64,000 bases of DNA from Dehalococcoidia bacterium (GCA_965197795.1 OZ240228.1:171765-235764); one strand, 5' to 3'; shown: positions 5,745 to 55,326, counted from the stretch's first letter. Numbers and translations: made by a program. The notes: generated by a model not told the origin, from the sequence alone.

Positions 5745-6461
5745 CTACACCGGTATTGGCACCGAGTTGTGGTCCTCCGTTTCGACCAAGAGACGAAACC
5801 GCGAGCCATCCATTGCGAAAGGCGGTCGGTCGAGAAACACGCCGGAGCCCATTCCAAGTCTCGAATGTGCGTTTGTTGGCTTGTCAAGATTTGCCGCGAT
5901 CCATTCCCCTGCTGATGGTTGATGCTCGGTAAGAAGAATCCATCTGTACCTGTCCAGCTTCGGAAGTATGCGCGCGATGTCATCGTTCGAGAGATGCTGC
6001 AACACCTGCCTCAGAATGCAGATATCGCCGACGGGTAGGTCTGCCGTTGTCAGGTCCAGACAGAAGAACCGAACGTTACTTCGCGTAAACGCCTTTGAGT
6101 TTGCCTCAACTAAGGATGCAACCACATCCACGCCAACATACTCACCGCACAAGTCGACTAACTGAGAGCCTATCTCGAAATCGCCACAGCCAAGATCGAC
6201 AACAGTTTTGTTTTCGCTTTCAACACTCGACAGCCACCGGCGAACCGCGTCTATATAAGGGCTAGCTTGGCGTGGATCGTGTGTCCCCGCGCCGGAATAC
6301 GCCAGGCCAGGTGTGCCTCCCCAACGGTTATTTGAATAGACAGCAGAGAAAATCTCCGAAGCGGTGCTACGCGGCATCCAACGACGTTCCAAGGTGAACC
6401 GACACCGCCACAGCAGGGCTTGAAAGCGGAAGGGAAGAAGTCTACGGAGCAGGGCCTTCAT
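5745..6461 (-). CDS. Class I SAM-dependent methyltransferase
   Basis: 238-aa ORF with VVDLGCGDFEIG (motif I GxGxG) and the later LQHL motif. The local GC is visibly lower than surrounding genes, suggesting horizontal origin. Confidence 0.7.
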   Translation of the reverse strand: MKALLRRLLPFRFQALLWRCRFTLERRWMPRSTASEIFSAVYSNNRWGGTPGLAYSGAGTHDPRQASPYIDAVRRWLSSVESENKTVVDLGCGDFEIGSQLVDLCGEYVGVDVVASLVEANSKAFTRSNVRFFCLDLTTADLPVGDICILRQVLQHLSNDDIARILPKLDRYRWILLTEHQPSAGEWIAANLDKPTNAHSRLGMGSGVFLDRPPFAMDGSRFRLLVETEDHNSVPIPV

Positions 6462-49143: not shown

Positions 49144-49571
49144 CTACGCCTTCAGCAGCCCCCGACGCCGCAGCGCCCGGTCCAGCGCGGGCTGCATCTT
49201 CATGGCCTGGAACTCGGCGATGGCGAAGTCGAGGTGCTCGATGGCCGTGTTGCGCTCGTCGGGGTAGTGGTCGAGCAGCAGCTCGGCGAGCTGGAGGCGA
49301 GTGAGGGCGAGCTCGGGGCGGCACCGCGCTCTCGTGCAGACATCGATGCCCTGATGGTAATAGTCGCGAGCCTTCTCCGGCTGGCCCAGCAGCACCGCCG
49401 CACCGCCCAGGTCCGCGACCCATGCAGCTGACGATCTAGGGTTCGATGAAGAGCAGGTTCGCCAGCGGGCCCAGGCGCGGTTCGAGGATGGCGGCGGCGT
49501 CCCTATGGCCTATAGCTACGGCAGCCTCTAGCAGGAAGCGCAAGAACGTAGCCGCTGTGTGGTCGTCCGGG
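49144..49571 (-). pseudogene. Severed C-terminal TPR tail of the giant Ser/Thr kinase-AAA-TPR gene (cut off by IS insertion; also one internal frameshift/stop)
   Basis: Track ORF 49144..49395 (LLGQPEKARDYYHQGIDV...LTRLQLAELL) plus upstream ...ATFLRFLLEAAVAIGHRDAAAILEPRLGPLANLLFIEP. The reading joins exactly across the IS target-site duplication to 51887..52588. Confidence 0.5.
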
Positions 49572-49643
49572 CTTGCGAGGGTAACAACCTAGTTGACTCA
49601 GTAACACATATGGGCTATGATTCTTTCGTAAGGAGTCAAAGCC

Positions 49644-50603
49644 ATGAGTGACAGCAATCCCGAAACCCTCATCGAAGCCATCCAGTTCTTCTCTGACCCT
49701 GGCACTTGCCAGGACTTCATGATGGCCATGCGCTGGCCGGATGGCGTCGTGGCTTGCCCTAACTGTGGCCGAAGTGATGTGCGCTACATCTCCACTCGCC
49801 GCCTGTGGGAGTGCAAAGAGAAACACGCCAAGCGGCAATTCTCGATCAAGGTCGGCACCATTTTTGAGGACTCGCCTATGGGCCTCGACAAGTGGTTGCC
49901 CTCCCTTTGGCTCATTGCCAACGACAAGAACGGTATCAGCTCCTACGAACTGGGCCGCGCTCTCGGCGTGACTCAAACAACTGCATGGTTCATGCTGCAC
50001 CGCATCCGACTCGCGATGCAGTCTGACGACTACACCAAGCTCGGCGGCACCATCGAGGTCGATGAGACTTTCATCGGCGGCAAGGCCCGCTTCATGCACA
50101 AGAGCGAGCGCGTGGGCAAGATCAAGGGGACAGGCACCGTGGGCAAGACTGCGGTTCTTGGTCTCTTGGAGCGCCACGGGCCGGACGGTCACAGCACCGT
50201 AAGGGCAAGTGTCGTTGCCAGCCGTCGGCGTAGTACTCTCAGCCCAGCGGTGCGCAGAAACGTTGCTAGCGGGGCGGTTGTCTACACGGACGCGCTGCCG
50301 TCCTACGCCGATCTGAAAGCTGACTATACCCACGGCGTTATCGACCACGCCGAGAAGTACGTCGATGGCAAGATTCACACCAACGGCATCGAGAATTTCT
50401 GGGCGCTGCTCAAGCGGGCCATCAAGGGAACCTACATCAGCGTCGAACCGTTCCACCTGTTCCGCTATCTCGATGAGGAAGCTTTCCGCTTCAACAACCG
50501 CAAGGCTAGCGACGGTGAGCGCTTCCTCCGACTCGCCCGCAGCGTCGTTGGCAAGCGTCTGACCTACGAAGAACTGACTGCAGTTACTACGACGCCAGCG
50601 TAG
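49644..50603 (+). CDS. IS1595-family transposase (DDE, N-terminal zinc ribbon)
   Basis: Zn ribbon CPNCGRSDVRYISTRRLWECKEKH, then a DDE domain (TIEVDETFIGG..., VVYTDALPSY, HTNGIENFWALLKR). The IS1595 family was recalled by motif; AGGAG RBS 8 nt upstream. Confidence 0.85.
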   Translation: MSDSNPETLIEAIQFFSDPGTCQDFMMAMRWPDGVVACPNCGRSDVRYISTRRLWECKEKHAKRQFSIKVGTIFEDSPMGLDKWLPSLWLIANDKNGISSYELGRALGVTQTTAWFMLHRIRLAMQSDDYTKLGGTIEVDETFIGGKARFMHKSERVGKIKGTGTVGKTAVLGLLERHGPDGHSTVRASVVASRRRSTLSPAVRRNVASGAVVYTDALPSYADLKADYTHGVIDHAEKYVDGKIHTNGIENFWALLKRAIKGTYISVEPFHLFRYLDEEAFRFNNRKASDGERFLRLARSVVGKRLTYEELTAVTTTPA

Positions 50604-50749
50604 GCAGGGAAGAGGCAAGCGTGGCAGAGCAACCCCGAAAGCCAAAGGAAGAGACGCCAATGGAGCGCCTAGAGCGGCTGGCGAAGAAGCTGCTGCGCGT
50701 ACCGAAGGCAGCAATCCAAGAGCCGAAGGACGATAGGCCACAGCCGCAG

Positions 50750-51859
50750 TCATGAAATCGCTTTCTTCAACTCATCTACGAAGTTGCGAGTATCTAGGTA
50801 GTAATTGGGGTAGGTTTGGCGAAGCGCCATTAGGGATTCTGCCGAAACTAGCACAGCGTCCTGATGCCCACCATCATTGAAGGTGGCCCGCTCGATGCCT
50901 TGATAGTCAATCAATGCACGCTGTAAGTCATTCGCCTGATACCCAGTAATCTTGACCGTCCTGGCATCCGCGTCCAGTTCCACAAGGTAGTAGAAGGCCT
51001 TCTTGCCCGCGGTTGACTGGACATCAATGGCACTGGCGAACGCTTCCAAGTTGTCCGCAACGCGCAAATCCTCTGCATATCTCCTTAGGTCACTCTTGAG
51101 CGTCGCTCCATCCATAGGAGTCCGTGGTACAAGTGCGCAGTCTTCCTTTAGTGCGAACTGCGATCCTATGAGGGCAAAGAAGCGCTTCCAATTCCTTGTC
51201 CCTCTACCAGCTTTGAGAGCTTGTCGTGTGAATATATCGACGGTCTCCACGGCTGTTGCCCAAGTATGCTGTAGTTGTGAGCGGAACTGCATTTCAATTC
51301 GATAGCCGTCATACTCTGGTCGCCGCTCACTTCCGTAACTAAAAATGAGATGGACGCCCCGATACCCAGAAGGTTTCGGTCCACGAATGTAGTCATTGGT
51401 ATAAAGGAGGTCGTGGCGGCGAGTATATTCCTGATATGCCTCAACCAGGTCATCTACCTTTTCAACTGAACTAAGCACCGCCCTACAACCTGCTATGTCT
51501 TGCATCTCTGAGAGCGTGAATTTGTCCTTATACTTACGAAGCTTGCTATAAATAGCGGGGAAGCGCTTTAAGCGCTGAACGACAAGGGAGTGCTTCTCGA
51601 CATCGTCAGCCTTGGATCGCAAAGTTGTCTGAAAGACGTTTAATGGATGGCCATGTGCGGCTCGCCAACTATCGAGAACGTCGAGCGCAGTAGTTAGCCG
51701 ACGGGAGTCCCCGGGTTCGCGCGATCCTTGGTTAGCTGCCCACCGCAGCAATTCGTTGCCAGCCTCGTTAACCTCTTCAGGGTTGAAGTGCGGGACAGCA
51801 AAGGGCATAAGGCACCTGCCACGGCCAGCCAAGTTGGTCTGACTACTAACCTTAGCCAT
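50750..51859 (-). CDS. RelA/SpoT-homolog nucleotide pyrophosphokinase domain protein (toxSAS / CapRel-like single-chain architecture), IS passenger
   Basis: The synthetase-fold motifs RLKRFPAIYSKLRKYKDK (RxKxxxSxxxK), DIAGCRAVL (DxxGxR), PKPSGYRGVHLIF (GYxSxH) and RIEMQFRSQLQHTWATAVE (ExQxRT...W) are all present. Roughly 95 aa N-terminal and 135 aa C-terminal extensions flank the domain. Confidence 0.6.
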   Translation of the reverse strand: MAKVSSQTNLAGRGRCLMPFAVPHFNPEEVNEAGNELLRWAANQGSREPGDSRRLTTALDVLDSWRAAHGHPLNVFQTTLRSKADDVEKHSLVVQRLKRFPAIYSKLRKYKDKFTLSEMQDIAGCRAVLSSVEKVDDLVEAYQEYTRRHDLLYTNDYIRGPKPSGYRGVHLIFSYGSERRPEYDGYRIEMQFRSQLQHTWATAVETVDIFTRQALKAGRGTRNWKRFFALIGSQFALKEDCALVPRTPMDGATLKSDLRRYAEDLRVADNLEAFASAIDVQSTAGKKAFYYLVELDADARTVKITGYQANDLQRALIDYQGIERATFNDGGHQDAVLVSAESLMALRQTYPNYYLDTRNFVDELKKAIS

Positions 51860-51886
51860 CGTAGCCCCCGTGACTTACTGAGTCAA

Positions 51887-54800
51887 CTAGGTTGTTTCCC
51901 TTGCGAGGTCCCTTGTGGCGAGGAACTCGTCGATTATCGAGGCAGCTTCTTGGTGACGGCCTGAGTATTCCAGGTAGATAGCACGCTGAGCAGCAAAGAC
52001 GCCGCCGAGTGCCCATAGGTGAGTCGGCTCGGCAATGCCCGCGAGCGCTTCTTCCGGCCGACCGAAATAGAGTAATGCTCGGCGTTCTACCTGGCCCGCC
52101 AATTGACGACCGACAGGTGCAATGCCGGCGCTTTCTGCAAACCCTCGCATCTCCGCGCCGAGCGCTAGGCAGTCCTCAAGGGCCCCATCCATGGCCGCAA
52201 GCACAGCACTTAAACCAAGCTCAACCAGCCTGACAGCGGGTCTCGGGACCCGATCCGCCAGCTCATGGCAACGAGACGCCGCCATCTCCGCCCGTGTTCG
52301 GTCGCCCCACATTAGAGCCGTAAAGAAGCAGGAAGACCATAGAAGCTCTAAGTCATGTGCATACCCTTCGGGTACGGGCTGAGCCCAGACCACTTCAGCA
52401 GCCTTGAGCCTCTCATCGATGTCTTCCACTGGCGCATTCTGCCCTATGACAATAGTCCTTGCGGCAGTCAAAGTCTCACGAAAATCCTGGAGATTCTGAG
52501 CCGTTGCGAAGGAGCGCAGATTGATGCGCCAGGCTTCATAGTCCCTGCCTTTCCCTCTCAGTACAGTGGCTAGCGCATCATCCGCCACGAGCCGGTGGAT
52601 GGTGTCGGGGGGGGGGGGTACTCATCCGCGCGCGAGGCCCAGAGCTCCCGTAATGTCTCATCCGAATCACGCATACCGCTTCGATTAAGGGGGACTACGG
52701 CACTCCAGGCGACCGTACAAGCGCGTGGCGCGTGCTCGTCGCCCAGGAGAACGCCTATCTGGAAGGCCTCCTCAGCGATAGACACGGCACGCTCGGGCCC
52801 GCCGCTCTGTGTCAGCGATTCAGCGAGAGAGATCAGCAAGTCACAACGCTTCGCCTTGTCGTCCGGGTCAATGATGTTCTGTACCTCCAGTGCTCGCTCC
52901 AGATGACGCACGGCTTCGCCATACGCGAACACCGAGATAGCACGGTTCGCTGCCAGCTCGCCATACTCGATAGCCCTTTCCAGGTCAGCGCGGTCTGTTG
53001 ACTGCCCGAAGTGCTCAGCCAGCTCGGCAGCGTGCTCCTCACGGCGTGAGGCGTACTGGGCCTCCAGAGCACGGGCGACCTCCTGATGGAGACTGAGGCG
53101 ACGCGGTGCAATCATCTCCTCGTAAAGCGACTGCCGGAAGAAGGCATGCGCAAACCGGTAGCGCACGGCACCGGGCAACGACCGCTCTTCCAGTACTCCA
53201 ACCCGCACCGCTTCCTCAATGCCCGTCAGTAGGTCGTCTTCGCTGAGGCCCGCCACTCCGCGCAGCGTCTGTAGGTCAAAGTCACGGCCGACGGCGGCCG
53301 CAACGGAGAGAAGTCGGTTACAGCTCTCGCTCAAGCGGGACAGGCGCTTACCCACCACGTCCCGCAGTCCCTCGGGTAAGCCGGTGCTGGGGCCGGTACC
53401 CTCGGACAGCACGTAACGACCTCCCTCGCGTACCACCAGGCCTTCCTCGACCATGTAGCGCATGACCTCCTGGACGAAGAGGGGATTGCCTTCCGTCTGA
53501 CGATGAATAGCCTCCGCCCGTGCCCATGAGACGTCCTGGCCCCGGAGAGAAACGTGCATGCGGTGCACCTCGTCCACCGTGAGTCCGCGTAACGGAAGCC
53601 GGAGGAAGGTTTCGCTACGTCTCAGCTCTGCCAACGTCGCCGACAGTGGATGAGCGCGGTCAACCTCCACGTCGCGGTAGGTGCCTACCACTAACAGTCG
53701 GGAGCCGTGGAGGTTACGTGAGAGATGGAGCAGCAAGTCTAGCGTGCCACTGTCGGAGTCGTGCAGGTCTTCGAGGACGAGGAGTAACGGCTGCACCGTT
53801 GTGGCGTTGCGCAGGAAGCCTGTTACTGCCTGTAGAAGACGGTAACGCTCCTCCTCCGGGTCACCGAGGGGCTGCAGCTCCACCTGAACGCGGTCACGCA
53901 CCTCAGACACGATGCGAGCGACCTCAGCTGCACCGGTACCCAGGTCAGACTTGAGTCCATCAGGCTCGCGCTCTAAGACGTAGGTGCGCAGAGCCTCGAT
54001 GAACGGTAGGTAAGGTAAGGAATGCGAGCCCTCCTCATAGCAGTGACCGACCAGCGTCTTACCACCTCGCAGCGCAGCGTAAGTGGCTAATTGCTCACAG
54101 ACCGATGTCTTGCCGATGCCGGGTTCACCTACGACCATCGCCAGCGAACCCTGACCGGACAGGGCCGTGTCGAAGGCTTTCTGTAGCTGTTGCAGCTCCT
54201 GCTCGCGCCCGACGAAGGTCCTCTGGTAGGTCGGTCATGCGCGTGCGGTGTCTCCTCGACGTGCTGCAAACTCGCTCCGCCCGGGCTGGCAGCGTTCTCC
54301 AGCGCCTCCCTGACTTCCGCGGCTGATGTCGGTCGCCCACCAGCGTCCTTCTCCAACAGCCTGAGGATCAAAGCCTCCAGCCCCGCAGGGGCAGTCGGGT
54401 CGGTGCCAGGTCGGCGCCACCGGCGGCGTGTTGAGGTGCTGGCCGATGATCGCCACGTGCTCGTCACCGACGAAGGGGGGCCGGCCGCAGACCATCTCGT
54501 ACAGCATCGCCCCCAGGGAGTAGAGGTCACTCTGCGGTGTTACCTCCCCTCCCATGGCCTGCTCCGGTGGCATGTAGCTCACCGTGCCCACCATCATCCC
54601 CGCCTGGGTGAGGCGGCTACGGTCTACGGCTACGGCTAGGCCAAAGTCACCGATCATCGCCCGGCCGTCCTCTGCCAGCCAGACGTTACCTGGCTTTAGG
54701 TCGCGGTGGATGATGCCCTTCTCGTGCGAGAACTCCAGGCCCATACAGGTCTCGGTGGCTATCTTGACCGCCTGCTCTATCGAGAGTTTGTGGTCTTCTG

Positions 54801-55326
54801 CCTGCTCAATGACGCCTTCTACGTCGCCACCGGGTAGCACGGGCAGGATGAGGTAGGGCTGACCGTTCTCTTGACCGATGTCGTAGACGGTGACGATGTG
54901 GGGGTGGGAGCCGAGGCGTCCCATGGCCTGGGCTTCACGGGTTATGCGCTGTCTGGCCTGTTCGTCCAAGCCTTCGGTCTTGATCAGGGCGAAAGCGACG
55001 TCACGGTCGAGCTGGGTGTCGTGGGCCAGGTAGACGCGCTTCTTACCGCCCTCGCCCAGGAAGCGTTTGACCTCGTAGCGACCAGAGGCGAAGGAGGTGG
55101 GCTGAGGTGCGGTACGGGCAGGTGGCGTCGGGGTCTGAGTATCGGGCAAAACCAAGACAGATCTCTCGGCAGCCGCCAGGAAAGCCTTCGCGTCGGCATT
55201 CTCTGGGTCAAAGGCGAGGATGCCTTGGGCTTTCTGGCGGACTGATTCCCAATCGAGTTGGTCAGCCGCCTCCTCGGCTTCGTCAAGGAGACGATTAATA
55301 CGACCCTGAATACGTTCACTGGTCAC
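51887..55326 (-). CDS. Giant Hanks-type Ser/Thr protein kinase - AAA/NB-ARC-like ATPase - TPR regulator (PknK/MalT-like), currently in 4 frame-pieces
   Basis: Kinase 55326..~54500 (GEGGKKRVYLAHD, HRDLKPGNVWL, DFGLA, SDLYSLG). The kinase tail (LEALILRLLEKDAGGRPTSAAEV) is in the +1 frame (ORF 54129..54530), then returns to the original frame for the AAA part 54138..52570 (GEPGIGKTS Walker A, LLVLEDLHDSD Walker B). A G12 tract at 52607-52618 separates the TPR part 52588..51887, which continues across the IS into 49571..49144. Confidence 0.7.
52607..52618. repeat. Homopolymer G12 (C12 on coding strand, encoding PPPP) at the AAA/TPR junction
   Basis: With 12 Gs the frame terminates 36 nt downstream (...YPPPPTPSTGSWRMMR*). 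With 13 Gs it reads through into ORF 51887..52588 (...YPPPPDTIHRLVADDALATVLRG...). Confidence 0.8.

Follow-up and report, generated by a model that had tools for sequence, protein, structure and literature searches.

Insertion sequences (IS) that carry passenger genes, the so-called transporter IS (tIS), were defined in the IS1595 family by Siguier, Gagnevin & Chandler in 2009 (as cited in PMC3129680 and PMC7986276), and fused CapRel proteins, which belong to the toxic small alarmone synthetases (toxSAS), were characterised in 2022-2024 (PMC9712102, PMC11578894). CapRel from phage SJ46 is triggered by the major capsid protein or by Gp54 of phage Bas11 (PMC9712102, PMC11578894), and the roles of its residues R79, R116, Y155, Y352, Y355, V338 and L339, as well as its mechanism, were described by Zhang et al. 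(PMC9712102). Here we analysed a stretch of 64,000 nucleotides from a Dehalococcoidia bacterium (GCA_965197795.1, OZ240228.1:171765-235764), further referred to as the window, in which a 2,320-bp element at 49580-51899 represents, with a probability of about 0.8 in our estimate, an IS1595-family tIS with one passenger, a fused CapRel-type toxSAS. Both kinds are already known, and what we describe is a new member or a new combination of them; no paper linking IS1595 elements with CapRel or with other anti-phage or toxin-antitoxin cargo was found in open-access full text.

Like the IS1595 tIS, the element has one zinc-ribbon DDE transposase, short inverted repeats (IRs), an 8-bp target-site duplication and a non-transposition gene inside the IRs; unlike the known ones, it has a predicted phage-defence toxSAS as a passenger, a conserved small open reading frame (ORF) and a -35 box in both IRs. 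Its end sequence GGnAAtAAT... resembles that of the ISNwi1 subgroup, a likeness that we take as a lead. The passenger shares with CapRel SJ46 (PDB 7ZTB, 9ERV) the single-chain layout of a toxSYNTH domain, anchor helices, a pseudo-zinc-finger domain (pseudo-ZFD) and a C-terminal YXXY motif, a similar length (369 or 352 aa versus 373), the assignment to the PDC-S33 model and a sensor that is the most variable region. It differs from CapRel SJ46 in being only ~30% identical to it, in residing in an IS within a chromosomal gene and not in a prophage, and in having V94, S339 and T349 at the interface positions A77, A341 and A351. The nearest relatives of the transposase come from metagenome-assembled genomes (MAGs) of Dehalococcoidia/Chloroflexota, and Chloroflexota is not among the CapRel phyla listed in PMC9712102. 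With MAGs as the nearest relatives, the lineage of the host appears to be an uncultured one.

A predicted CapRel-type passenger in an IS1595-family element

The left repeat (IRL) occupies 49580-49604 (+ strand, 25 nt, GGTAACAACCTAGTTGACTCAGTAA) and agrees with the clade consensus GGcAATAATATACTTGACTCA, and the right repeat (IRR) occupies 51875-51899 (- strand), its inward reading, i.e. the reverse complement, being GGAAACAACCTAGTTGACTCAGTAA. The two are identical at 24 of 25 positions, with a single mismatch at position 3, and beyond the 25 nt a weaker similarity of the ends extends to about 41-50 nt (~50 nt at 82% according to the repeat finder). Two perfectly matching copies of the 8-bp duplication CTTGCGAG flank the repeats at 49572-49579 and 51900-51907, in agreement with the target consensus CTWATWAG obtained from 56 elements of the clade. 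The 22-nt core of the IRs occurs exactly twice in the window and not once in 100 shuffles, and when up to 3 mismatches in this core are allowed no further copy is found in the 64 kb, either inside the element or elsewhere. A first-pass annotation, made from the sequence of this DNA, had proposed an IS1595-family element with an 8-bp duplication and a passenger within the IRs, and all of this holds on exact alignment; the IRR lies beyond the start codon of the passenger, and there is no internal IR copy. Some of its borders had to be corrected: the repeats are 25 nt long and not 26, the string given for them being one base too long; the left end at 49580 stays, while the right end, placed three bases too far left at 51896, is at 51899; and the second copy of the duplication ends at 51907 rather than 51904.

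The transposase of 319 aa is encoded by one uninterrupted ORF at 49644-50603 (+) and is recognised by the NCBIfam profile transpos_IS1595 (187.9 bits at a cut-off of 75, 2.1e-55) as well as by the Pfam profiles DDE_Tnp_IS1595 (137.6 bits, 4.4e-40) and Zn_ribbon_IS1595 (43 bits, 4.5e-11). Together with the terminal IRs and the duplication, this single-ORF DDE transposase with a zinc ribbon makes up the set of features of the IS1595 family, and the position of the CapRel ORF between the small ORF and the IRR, inside the IRs, is that of a tIS passenger.

Judged by profiles, alignment and a predicted structure, the passenger, whose longest ORF of 369 aa is located at 50750-51859 (-), is a full-length homologue of the fused CapRel-type toxSAS. 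The Pfam RelA_SpoT domain is found at residues 95-202 (1.8e-14), and PDC-S33 is the sole PADLOC model matched by the protein, end to end, with 2.7e-108; the SJ46 CapRel taken from its GenBank record matches PDC-S33 alone, too (7e-87). The name PDC-S33 itself gave no paper in open-access full text. The best match in a phmmer search of the PDB is CapRel SJ46 (7ztb/9erv, E 1.8e-32, residues 56-362), and in a tblastn search of phage genomes it is the gene of phage SJ46 (29.7% identity, 82% coverage, E 3e-32). For the AlphaFold2 model, which was built on an alignment of 61 homologues (pLDDT 86.7, pTM 0.85), Foldseek places CapRel structures on top (E 4e-21, 365-369 columns, TM-score 0.62-0.69), and RelP/RelQ are aligned over ~190 columns only, with E ~4e-8 and roughly 20% identity. 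Despite the full-length alignment the root-mean-square deviation of the model from the open CapRel crystal form is ~10 Å, which is compatible with a domain arrangement other than the open one but is no proof of it.

The residues known to be essential for the SJ46 protein can be followed through the alignment. In the toxSYNTH domain, i.e. the RelA/SpoT nucleotidyltransferase of residues ~56-240 (51140-51694, -), R79 and R116 of SJ46, by which adenine is coordinated, correspond to R96 and R126, and the G-loop Y155 to Y166. The C-terminal antitoxin/sensor region, residues ~278-369 (50753-51028, -), which aligns with the C-terminus of CapRel SJ46, is composed of a pseudo-ZFD-like beta-sheet with a helix (278-333), a VLV...YPNY segment and a terminal helix; in the model the strands are at 279-283, 290-296, 301-307 and 333-339, and the helix is at 309-329. 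Here Y352/Y355 of the SJ46 YXXY motif correspond to Y350/Y353 (YPNY), and the interface residues V338/L339 to V336/L337, which are invariant or nearly so in the family. In the 61 homologues R96, R126, Y166 and Y350 are invariant and Y353 is kept in at least 90%, and the mean identity, 56% in the synthetase core and 58% in the C-terminal tail, falls to 34% in residues 278-333, the most variable part. There is no separate antitoxin gene beside the passenger, the sole neighbouring ORF being the small one, which is seen with unrelated cargo as well. More than 4,000 database proteins match the passenger, the best of them with 65% identity, and the presence of the family on ~120 IMG/VR contigs agrees with what is known of the link between CapRel and prophages.

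CapRel-carrying relatives and near-identical contigs

According to our analysis, CapRel passengers are found within IS1595 elements at other sites as well. The closest CapRel homologue (P0001, 65%) is held, in the same arrangement, by the element L081 (4816-7100 in reverse-complement coordinates). Over 2,069 nt L081 and the window element are collinear, with 66.5% DNA identity, and their transposases are 67% and their CapRel proteins 65% identical. Two more elements are located at unrelated sites: L118, of 3,164 bp, with IRs identical at 24 of 25 positions and the duplication CTAGTTTG (8/8), and L211 on an IMG/VR viral contig, of 2,856 bp, with intact repeats and the duplication CATCACTG (8/8). 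The own duplications of L118 and L211 and the perfect IRs of L081 suggest that the whole unit moves with its passenger. Among the CapRel loci with at least 1.2 kb of flank, an IS1595 transposase match is near CapRel in 8 of 44 metagenomic and in 5 of 70 viral ones.

Directly downstream of CapRel homologues on three IMG/VR contigs we also observed short transposase matches limited to the N-terminal, zinc-ribbon part (L169 1728-2108, L182 5172-5537, L183 5172-5516); they may be remnants of a former IS carriage or may belong to an unrelated zinc-ribbon protein.

An exact look-up of the transposase revealed three further contigs in public assemblies, 99.8-99.9% identical to that of the window, with the IS at the same site, and exact-protein look-ups found neither an empty site nor a second copy. 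The same look-up gave no record of the 369-aa CapRel, from which the other contigs are set apart by one or two substitutions. Altogether the four contigs have three substitutions in the CapRel ORF (50817, 51829 and 51860, the last of which belongs to the 5' leader should Met18 be the start), and the element is free of indels.

Proposed mode of action and alternative explanations

The anatomy of the element, IRL, transposase, a 44-aa small ORF and a convergent CapRel with its 5' end against the IRR, inserted in a CTnnnnAG target, allows us to propose the following scheme. The DDE transposase, as expected from the features of the family, would bind the two 25-bp IRs and move the entire unit including the passenger. 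The left TTGACT, paired with TATGAT, would direct the expression of the transposase and of the small ORF, and the right one, paired with TACGAT (TACAAT in the sister contigs), that of CapRel, probably from Met18. By analogy with CapRel SJ46, in an uninfected cell the C-terminal pseudo-ZFD would dock on toxSYNTH, so that YPNY blocks the ATP site (R96, R126); upon infection a phage protein would bind the variable pseudo-ZFD and the enzyme would open; the opened enzyme would pyrophosphorylate the 3'-CCA of tRNA, translation would stop and the infection would abort. The activity of the passenger, its phage trigger and the mobility of the element are all predicted here from sequence. If the scheme is correct, the IS carries an immune sensor-effector made of one gene in a normal chromosomal, non-prophage setting, a transposon as small as 2.3 kb can carry such a gene, far under the size of a prophage, a satellite or a defence island, and CapRel extends to phyla where it has not been studied.

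A number of observations weigh against this scheme. The identity to the characterised CapRel is only ~30%, so that the substrate and the trigger could differ. There is one copy in the 64-kb window and an identical site in all contigs, which speaks against taking current mobility for granted. The right-end -10 box TACGAT is only a modest match, and the start codon of CapRel is uncertain because the predicted promoter overlaps its first ATG. Lastly, L081 has perfect IRs (25/25) but no matching duplication (CTCTTTTG versus TTCCCAAT), which may result from recombination between two copies or from an adjacent deletion.

Several other explanations may be considered in view of these data. One of them regards the passenger as a housekeeping RelQ/RelP-like (p)ppGpp synthetase that merely stands beside an IS, given its Pfam RelA_SpoT domain and weak matches to YjbM/RelQ and RelP; indeed, RelQ/RelP (PDB 5DEC, 6EWZ) have the same nucleotidyltransferase core fold of ~190 residues. 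The core is, however, all that the RelP/RelQ structures cover of the 369 columns, the NCBIfam profile NF053588 GTPPhKinYjbM gives 48.8 bits against a cut-off of 320, and the gene is located inside the IRs and the duplication. Unlike the single-domain proteins of ~200-230 aa, the passenger has 352-369 aa, with additional helices at its N-terminus and an antitoxin/sensor domain of 130 aa at its C-terminus, and we consider this explanation effectively refuted. The CapRel-like nature of the RelA/SpoT passenger, suggested in the first-pass annotation together with a comparison against toxSAS families, has thus been borne out: PDC-S33, 7ztb/9erv and the full-length Foldseek match all put CapRel first, and the housekeeping grouping, which the annotation had named as the contrary outcome, did not appear. 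A toxSAS with another output, such as (pp)pApp synthesis with ATP depletion as in FaRel or Tas1, is a more serious candidate, considering the distance from the SJ46 protein and the use of both mechanisms by toxSAS subfamilies (PMC9712102). Nevertheless, in its architecture over the full length, in its profile and in its regulatory motif the passenger agrees with the CapRel subfamily, which targets translation, and no FaRel or Tas1 structure is among the PDB sequence matches at E <1, which makes such an output rather improbable.

The two remaining explanations concern the fate of the element and not the chemistry of its product. An immobile fossil, with CapRel as a silent or decaying cargo fixed in the lineage, would agree with the single copy in the window, the same site in all four near-identical contigs, the several frame breaks of the host gene and the mismatch in the IRs. 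Such decay is unlikely, though slightly less so than an alternative output of the enzyme, because all three ORFs of the element are intact, catalytic and regulatory residues are conserved, the IRs match at 24 of 25 positions with a perfect duplication, and the four contigs differ by just three CapRel-ORF substitutions without indels in the element; besides, at least one of the host frame breaks is a poly-G difference between assemblies labelled 3x-6x and may be an assembly error. A fused toxin-antitoxin might also serve the IS itself, through stabilisation or addiction that kills cells losing or silencing the IS, rather than the defence of the host. Mobile DNA is classically stabilised by selfish toxin-antitoxin genes, and among the cargo of the clade there are Panacea-type antitoxin domains as well as restriction-modification genes, which are potentially selfish too. 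In one polypeptide, however, a differential decay after gene loss cannot work as it does in two-gene systems, the variability of the sensor region points to an arms race with phages, and those fused CapRels that have been characterised show no activity before they are bound by a phage protein (PMC9712102); we therefore hold addiction to be the least probable of these three, although not as remote as the housekeeping synthetase. From the information discussed above, a tIS with a fused CapRel-type toxSAS as its single passenger is the explanation that we prefer.

Promoter-like sites, start codon and the small open reading frame

A consensus scan of 49400-52100 found exactly two sigma-70-like sites, both in the terminal repeats and both facing inward: TTGACT-17-TATGAT at 49593-49621 (+), a putative promoter of the transposase with its -35 box in the IRL, and TTGACT-17-TACGAT at 51858-51886 (-), a promoter-like site for the passenger with its -35 box in the IRR. 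The TTGACT hexamer is a part of the IR itself and is conserved across the clade. Counting as -10-like any hexamer that matches at four or more of its six positions and has A in the second and T in the sixth, we found one 16-18 nt inward at 45 of 54 left ends (0-9 of 54 at control offsets) and at 25 of 54 right ends (1-5 of 54 at control offsets). From this we infer that the cargo may have a hybrid promoter, one half of which comes from the IRR, and the fixed orientation of the cargo would thereby be explained. As the host gene has the same orientation, CapRel may also be transcribed by read-through. Terminator-like matches between the convergent genes are no more frequent than expected by chance. 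In the three near-identical contigs the substitution C51860T converts the -10 hexamer TACGAT to TACAAT, which is nearer to the consensus.

The true start of CapRel is probably the ATG at 51808 (M18), giving a protein of 352 aa, because it is at residue 18 that the homologues set in, the AlphaFold2 model shows disorder in residues 1-16 and the first ATG (51859) overlaps the predicted -10 box.

Between the transposase and CapRel there is a conserved small ORF of 44 aa, MAEQPRKPKEETPMERLERLAKKLLRVPKAAIQEPKDDRPQPQS, at 50621-50755 (+), which was missed by the first-pass annotation. It begins 17 nt past the stop of the transposase and has a 6-nt overlap with the CapRel end, at its stop codon. At least 27 related elements have, directly after the transposase, a peptide of the type tPFeRFerLakkivsVPKkE with its own start codon; in the clade these products are basic, have 40-60 aa and mark the end of the conserved backbone (further examples are L001 5978-6100, L002 5978-6113 and L056 3795-3978). 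A search of Pfam gave no match for it. Since most of the close relatives have the small ORF in the -1 frame, its fusion to the transposase by frameshifting was considered and rejected, as it has its own start codon. In the close relatives a Shine-Dalgarno-like sequence is present and the start is 17-26 nt after the transposase stop; in another subgroup the frame is different and the distance is 61 nt. Separate translation is thus the simpler reading, given the own start, the Shine-Dalgarno-like sequence and the other frame and distance elsewhere.

Cargo of the wider clade

A search of GTDB, with one genome per species, returned more than 451 relatives of the transposase, the best of them, from a Dehalococcoidia MAG, being 89% identical. 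We analysed the best 80 (55-89% identical), which are mostly MAGs of Dehalococcoidia/Chloroflexota, Pyrinomonadaceae/Acidobacteriota, 'Deltaproteobacteria' and Binatota. A scripted search for repeats with a perfect 8-bp duplication defined the ends at 53 of the 80 loci, which with the window element gives 54 elements of 1,877-5,918 bp. Every one of them carries cargo by the IRR, and a cargo-free IS of ~1.2 kb was not present among these 54. The largest cargo ORF is convergent with the transposase in 44 of the 54, and the start of the ORF nearest to the IRR is usually within ~100 nt of the right end. The target consensus CTWATWAG is palindromic (C 39/56, T 41/56 ... A 38/56, G 42/56, for the 54 elements with perfect duplications together with L118 and L211), which suggests that the clade chooses its targets by sequence.

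The cargo itself is diverse. A cluster of DUF3800 proteins occurs in 16 elements, 14 of them passing Pfam thresholds; in type VII retrons the effector domain, which is RNase H2-like, is a DUF3800 (PMC7736814). Other elements carry AbiU, GmrSD/HEC-06, PDC-S42, PDC-S05, PDC-S23, AIPR, RhuM and Panacea-domain proteins, a SacI-type restriction enzyme with a D12 methylase (type II restriction-modification), and HNH and GIY-YIG nucleases (examples of cargo regions are L017 3610-4506, L021 3290-5107, L028 6843-8564 and L006 6098-7165). Published 'DUF3800' RNA motifs were tried as a possible equivalent of these IS ends and rejected, there being no Rfam match at 12 DUF3800 loci and in the window region.

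Ten elements share an unannotated cargo family of 250-310 aa (L002 6110-6862, L012 1635-2432, L019 2068-2889, L036 7239-8120, L041 6466-7326, L061 9845-10777, L062 4525-5331, L068 6152-7069, L071 6587-7387 and L077 9334-10260), which due to its place in the element is a candidate for a new defence or toxin gene; the one member scanned, that of L002, had neither a Pfam nor a PADLOC match. In the 89% identical relative, L001, an antitoxin-looking ORF of 66 aa (MPYTRLVEFSDSASAALLELAKNTGKSEADVLRDAIALAKFISDLH...) is in the cargo position at 6114-6314 (+), and the contig ends before the remaining cargo.

Among the closest transposase relatives CapRel had been expected as cargo too, yet it is absent from all 80 genome loci, and this underlies the picture of cargo swapping. 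The nearest relatives of the window element (89%, 79% and 70%) hold other cargo, and the more distant L081 holds CapRel; likewise, the types of cargo are intermingled when the transposases are placed in a neighbour-joining tree. The backbones of sister elements (IRL, transposase and small ORF, ~1.15-1.22 kb) are 75-80% identical in DNA with unrelated cargo, their homology stopping just past the small ORF and resuming only in the 23-26-bp IRR, which makes the mechanism of exchange puzzling.

Tn7-like defence-cargo transposons also consist of a backbone and a variable cargo rich in defence, toxin-antitoxin and restriction genes. Compared with them, the elements of this clade are far smaller (2-6 kb, one transposase gene), have no att-site targeting machinery and usually carry one cargo gene, whose orientation against one IR is fixed. 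It is tempting, with due caution, to regard the clade as an apparently obligately cargo-bearing minimal vector for expression and delivery of immune and toxin modules of one or few genes, and equally tentative is the design that we ascribe to it, with a constant ~1.2-kb backbone of an IRL with its own promoter, the transposase and the basic small ORF, a cargo slot after the small ORF, a hybrid promoter that takes its -35 box from the IRR, and exchange of cargo between backbones that have kept 75-89% identity. If this is true, the unannotated cargo families become candidate new defence genes, and the cargo slot may be used as a handle for discovery, its contents, including DUF3800 and the 250-310-aa family, being candidate immunity or toxin genes. 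The pattern of the family (obligate cargo, cassette-like exchange, a promoter box in the repeat and a conserved small ORF) merits follow-up, also for the questions of IS biology which it raises, namely how cargo is swapped with a 24-bp shared IR, what the role of the small ORF is, and whether an IR doubles as a promoter element of the cargo.

Host gene, genomic context and base composition

The element interrupts a gene for a protein with a Ser/Thr kinase domain, an AAA_16 STAND-type ATPase and a TPR-like tail. The first-pass annotation had recognised a kinase gene with a TPR tail, and its word 'giant' is a generous term for ~1,290 aa without the IS. The upstream part, at 51887-55326 (-), consists of three frame-shifted pieces (Pkinase 7e-46, AAA_16 3e-20) and now ends ...FLATRDLARETT* inside the IRR; the downstream remainder, the C-terminal ~143 aa, is at 49144-49571 (-) in the restored-frame translation, with a frame break near 49430, so that the insertion is ~143 codons before the end of the gene. 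Deletion of the element with one copy of the duplication followed by translation gives a single frame, ...FLATRDLASPDDHTAATFLRFLLEAAV..., in which FLATRDLA joins exactly to SPDDHTAATFLRFLLEAAV, as was stated earlier; the restored frame stops ~50 aa later, and the TPR-like tail goes on in another frame. Of the 'recent and precise' insertion claimed before, precision is thereby seen, and recency is unproven because all four near-identical contigs hold the IS at the same site. The neighbouring genes, radical-SAM, NifU and DUF169, indicate that the locus is not a prophage.

The window has a mean GC of 0.622, and four host genes have GC of 0.596-0.639 and GC at third codon positions (GC3) of 0.69-0.82. 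The earlier statement that both IS genes are lower in GC than the host is valid for CapRel (GC 0.517, GC3 0.54), which is the lowest-GC 1.1-kb stretch of the window, and fails for the transposase (GC 0.592, GC3 0.75), which is host-like at GC3. Low GC was considered as a mark of recent acquisition and rejected, since CapRel is below its own transposase in all four CapRel-carrying elements (0.517/0.592 in the window, 0.537/0.619 in L081, 0.488/0.519 in L118 and 0.544/0.592 in L211), including L081, where the two have co-diverged; it looks like a gene-specific bias and is no evidence of recency.

The host gene holds further frame breaks unrelated to the IS, at 54130-54530 (-) and at about 49430 (-). 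One of these is in the kinase domain, where the Pkinase match ends at profile position 204 of 263 and the remainder reads in another frame, and another is ~50 codons past the insertion point. The gene may be a true pseudogene, or some of the breaks may be errors, because the assemblies are labelled 3x and 6x, which we read as low coverage. At 52607, in the AAA_16 part, a poly-G run differs in length among the four near-identical contigs, with four additional G in L242 and one G less in L243 and L244; with the length found in L242 the host ORF becomes continuous over 751 aa, and the difference reflects either an assembly error or phase variation.

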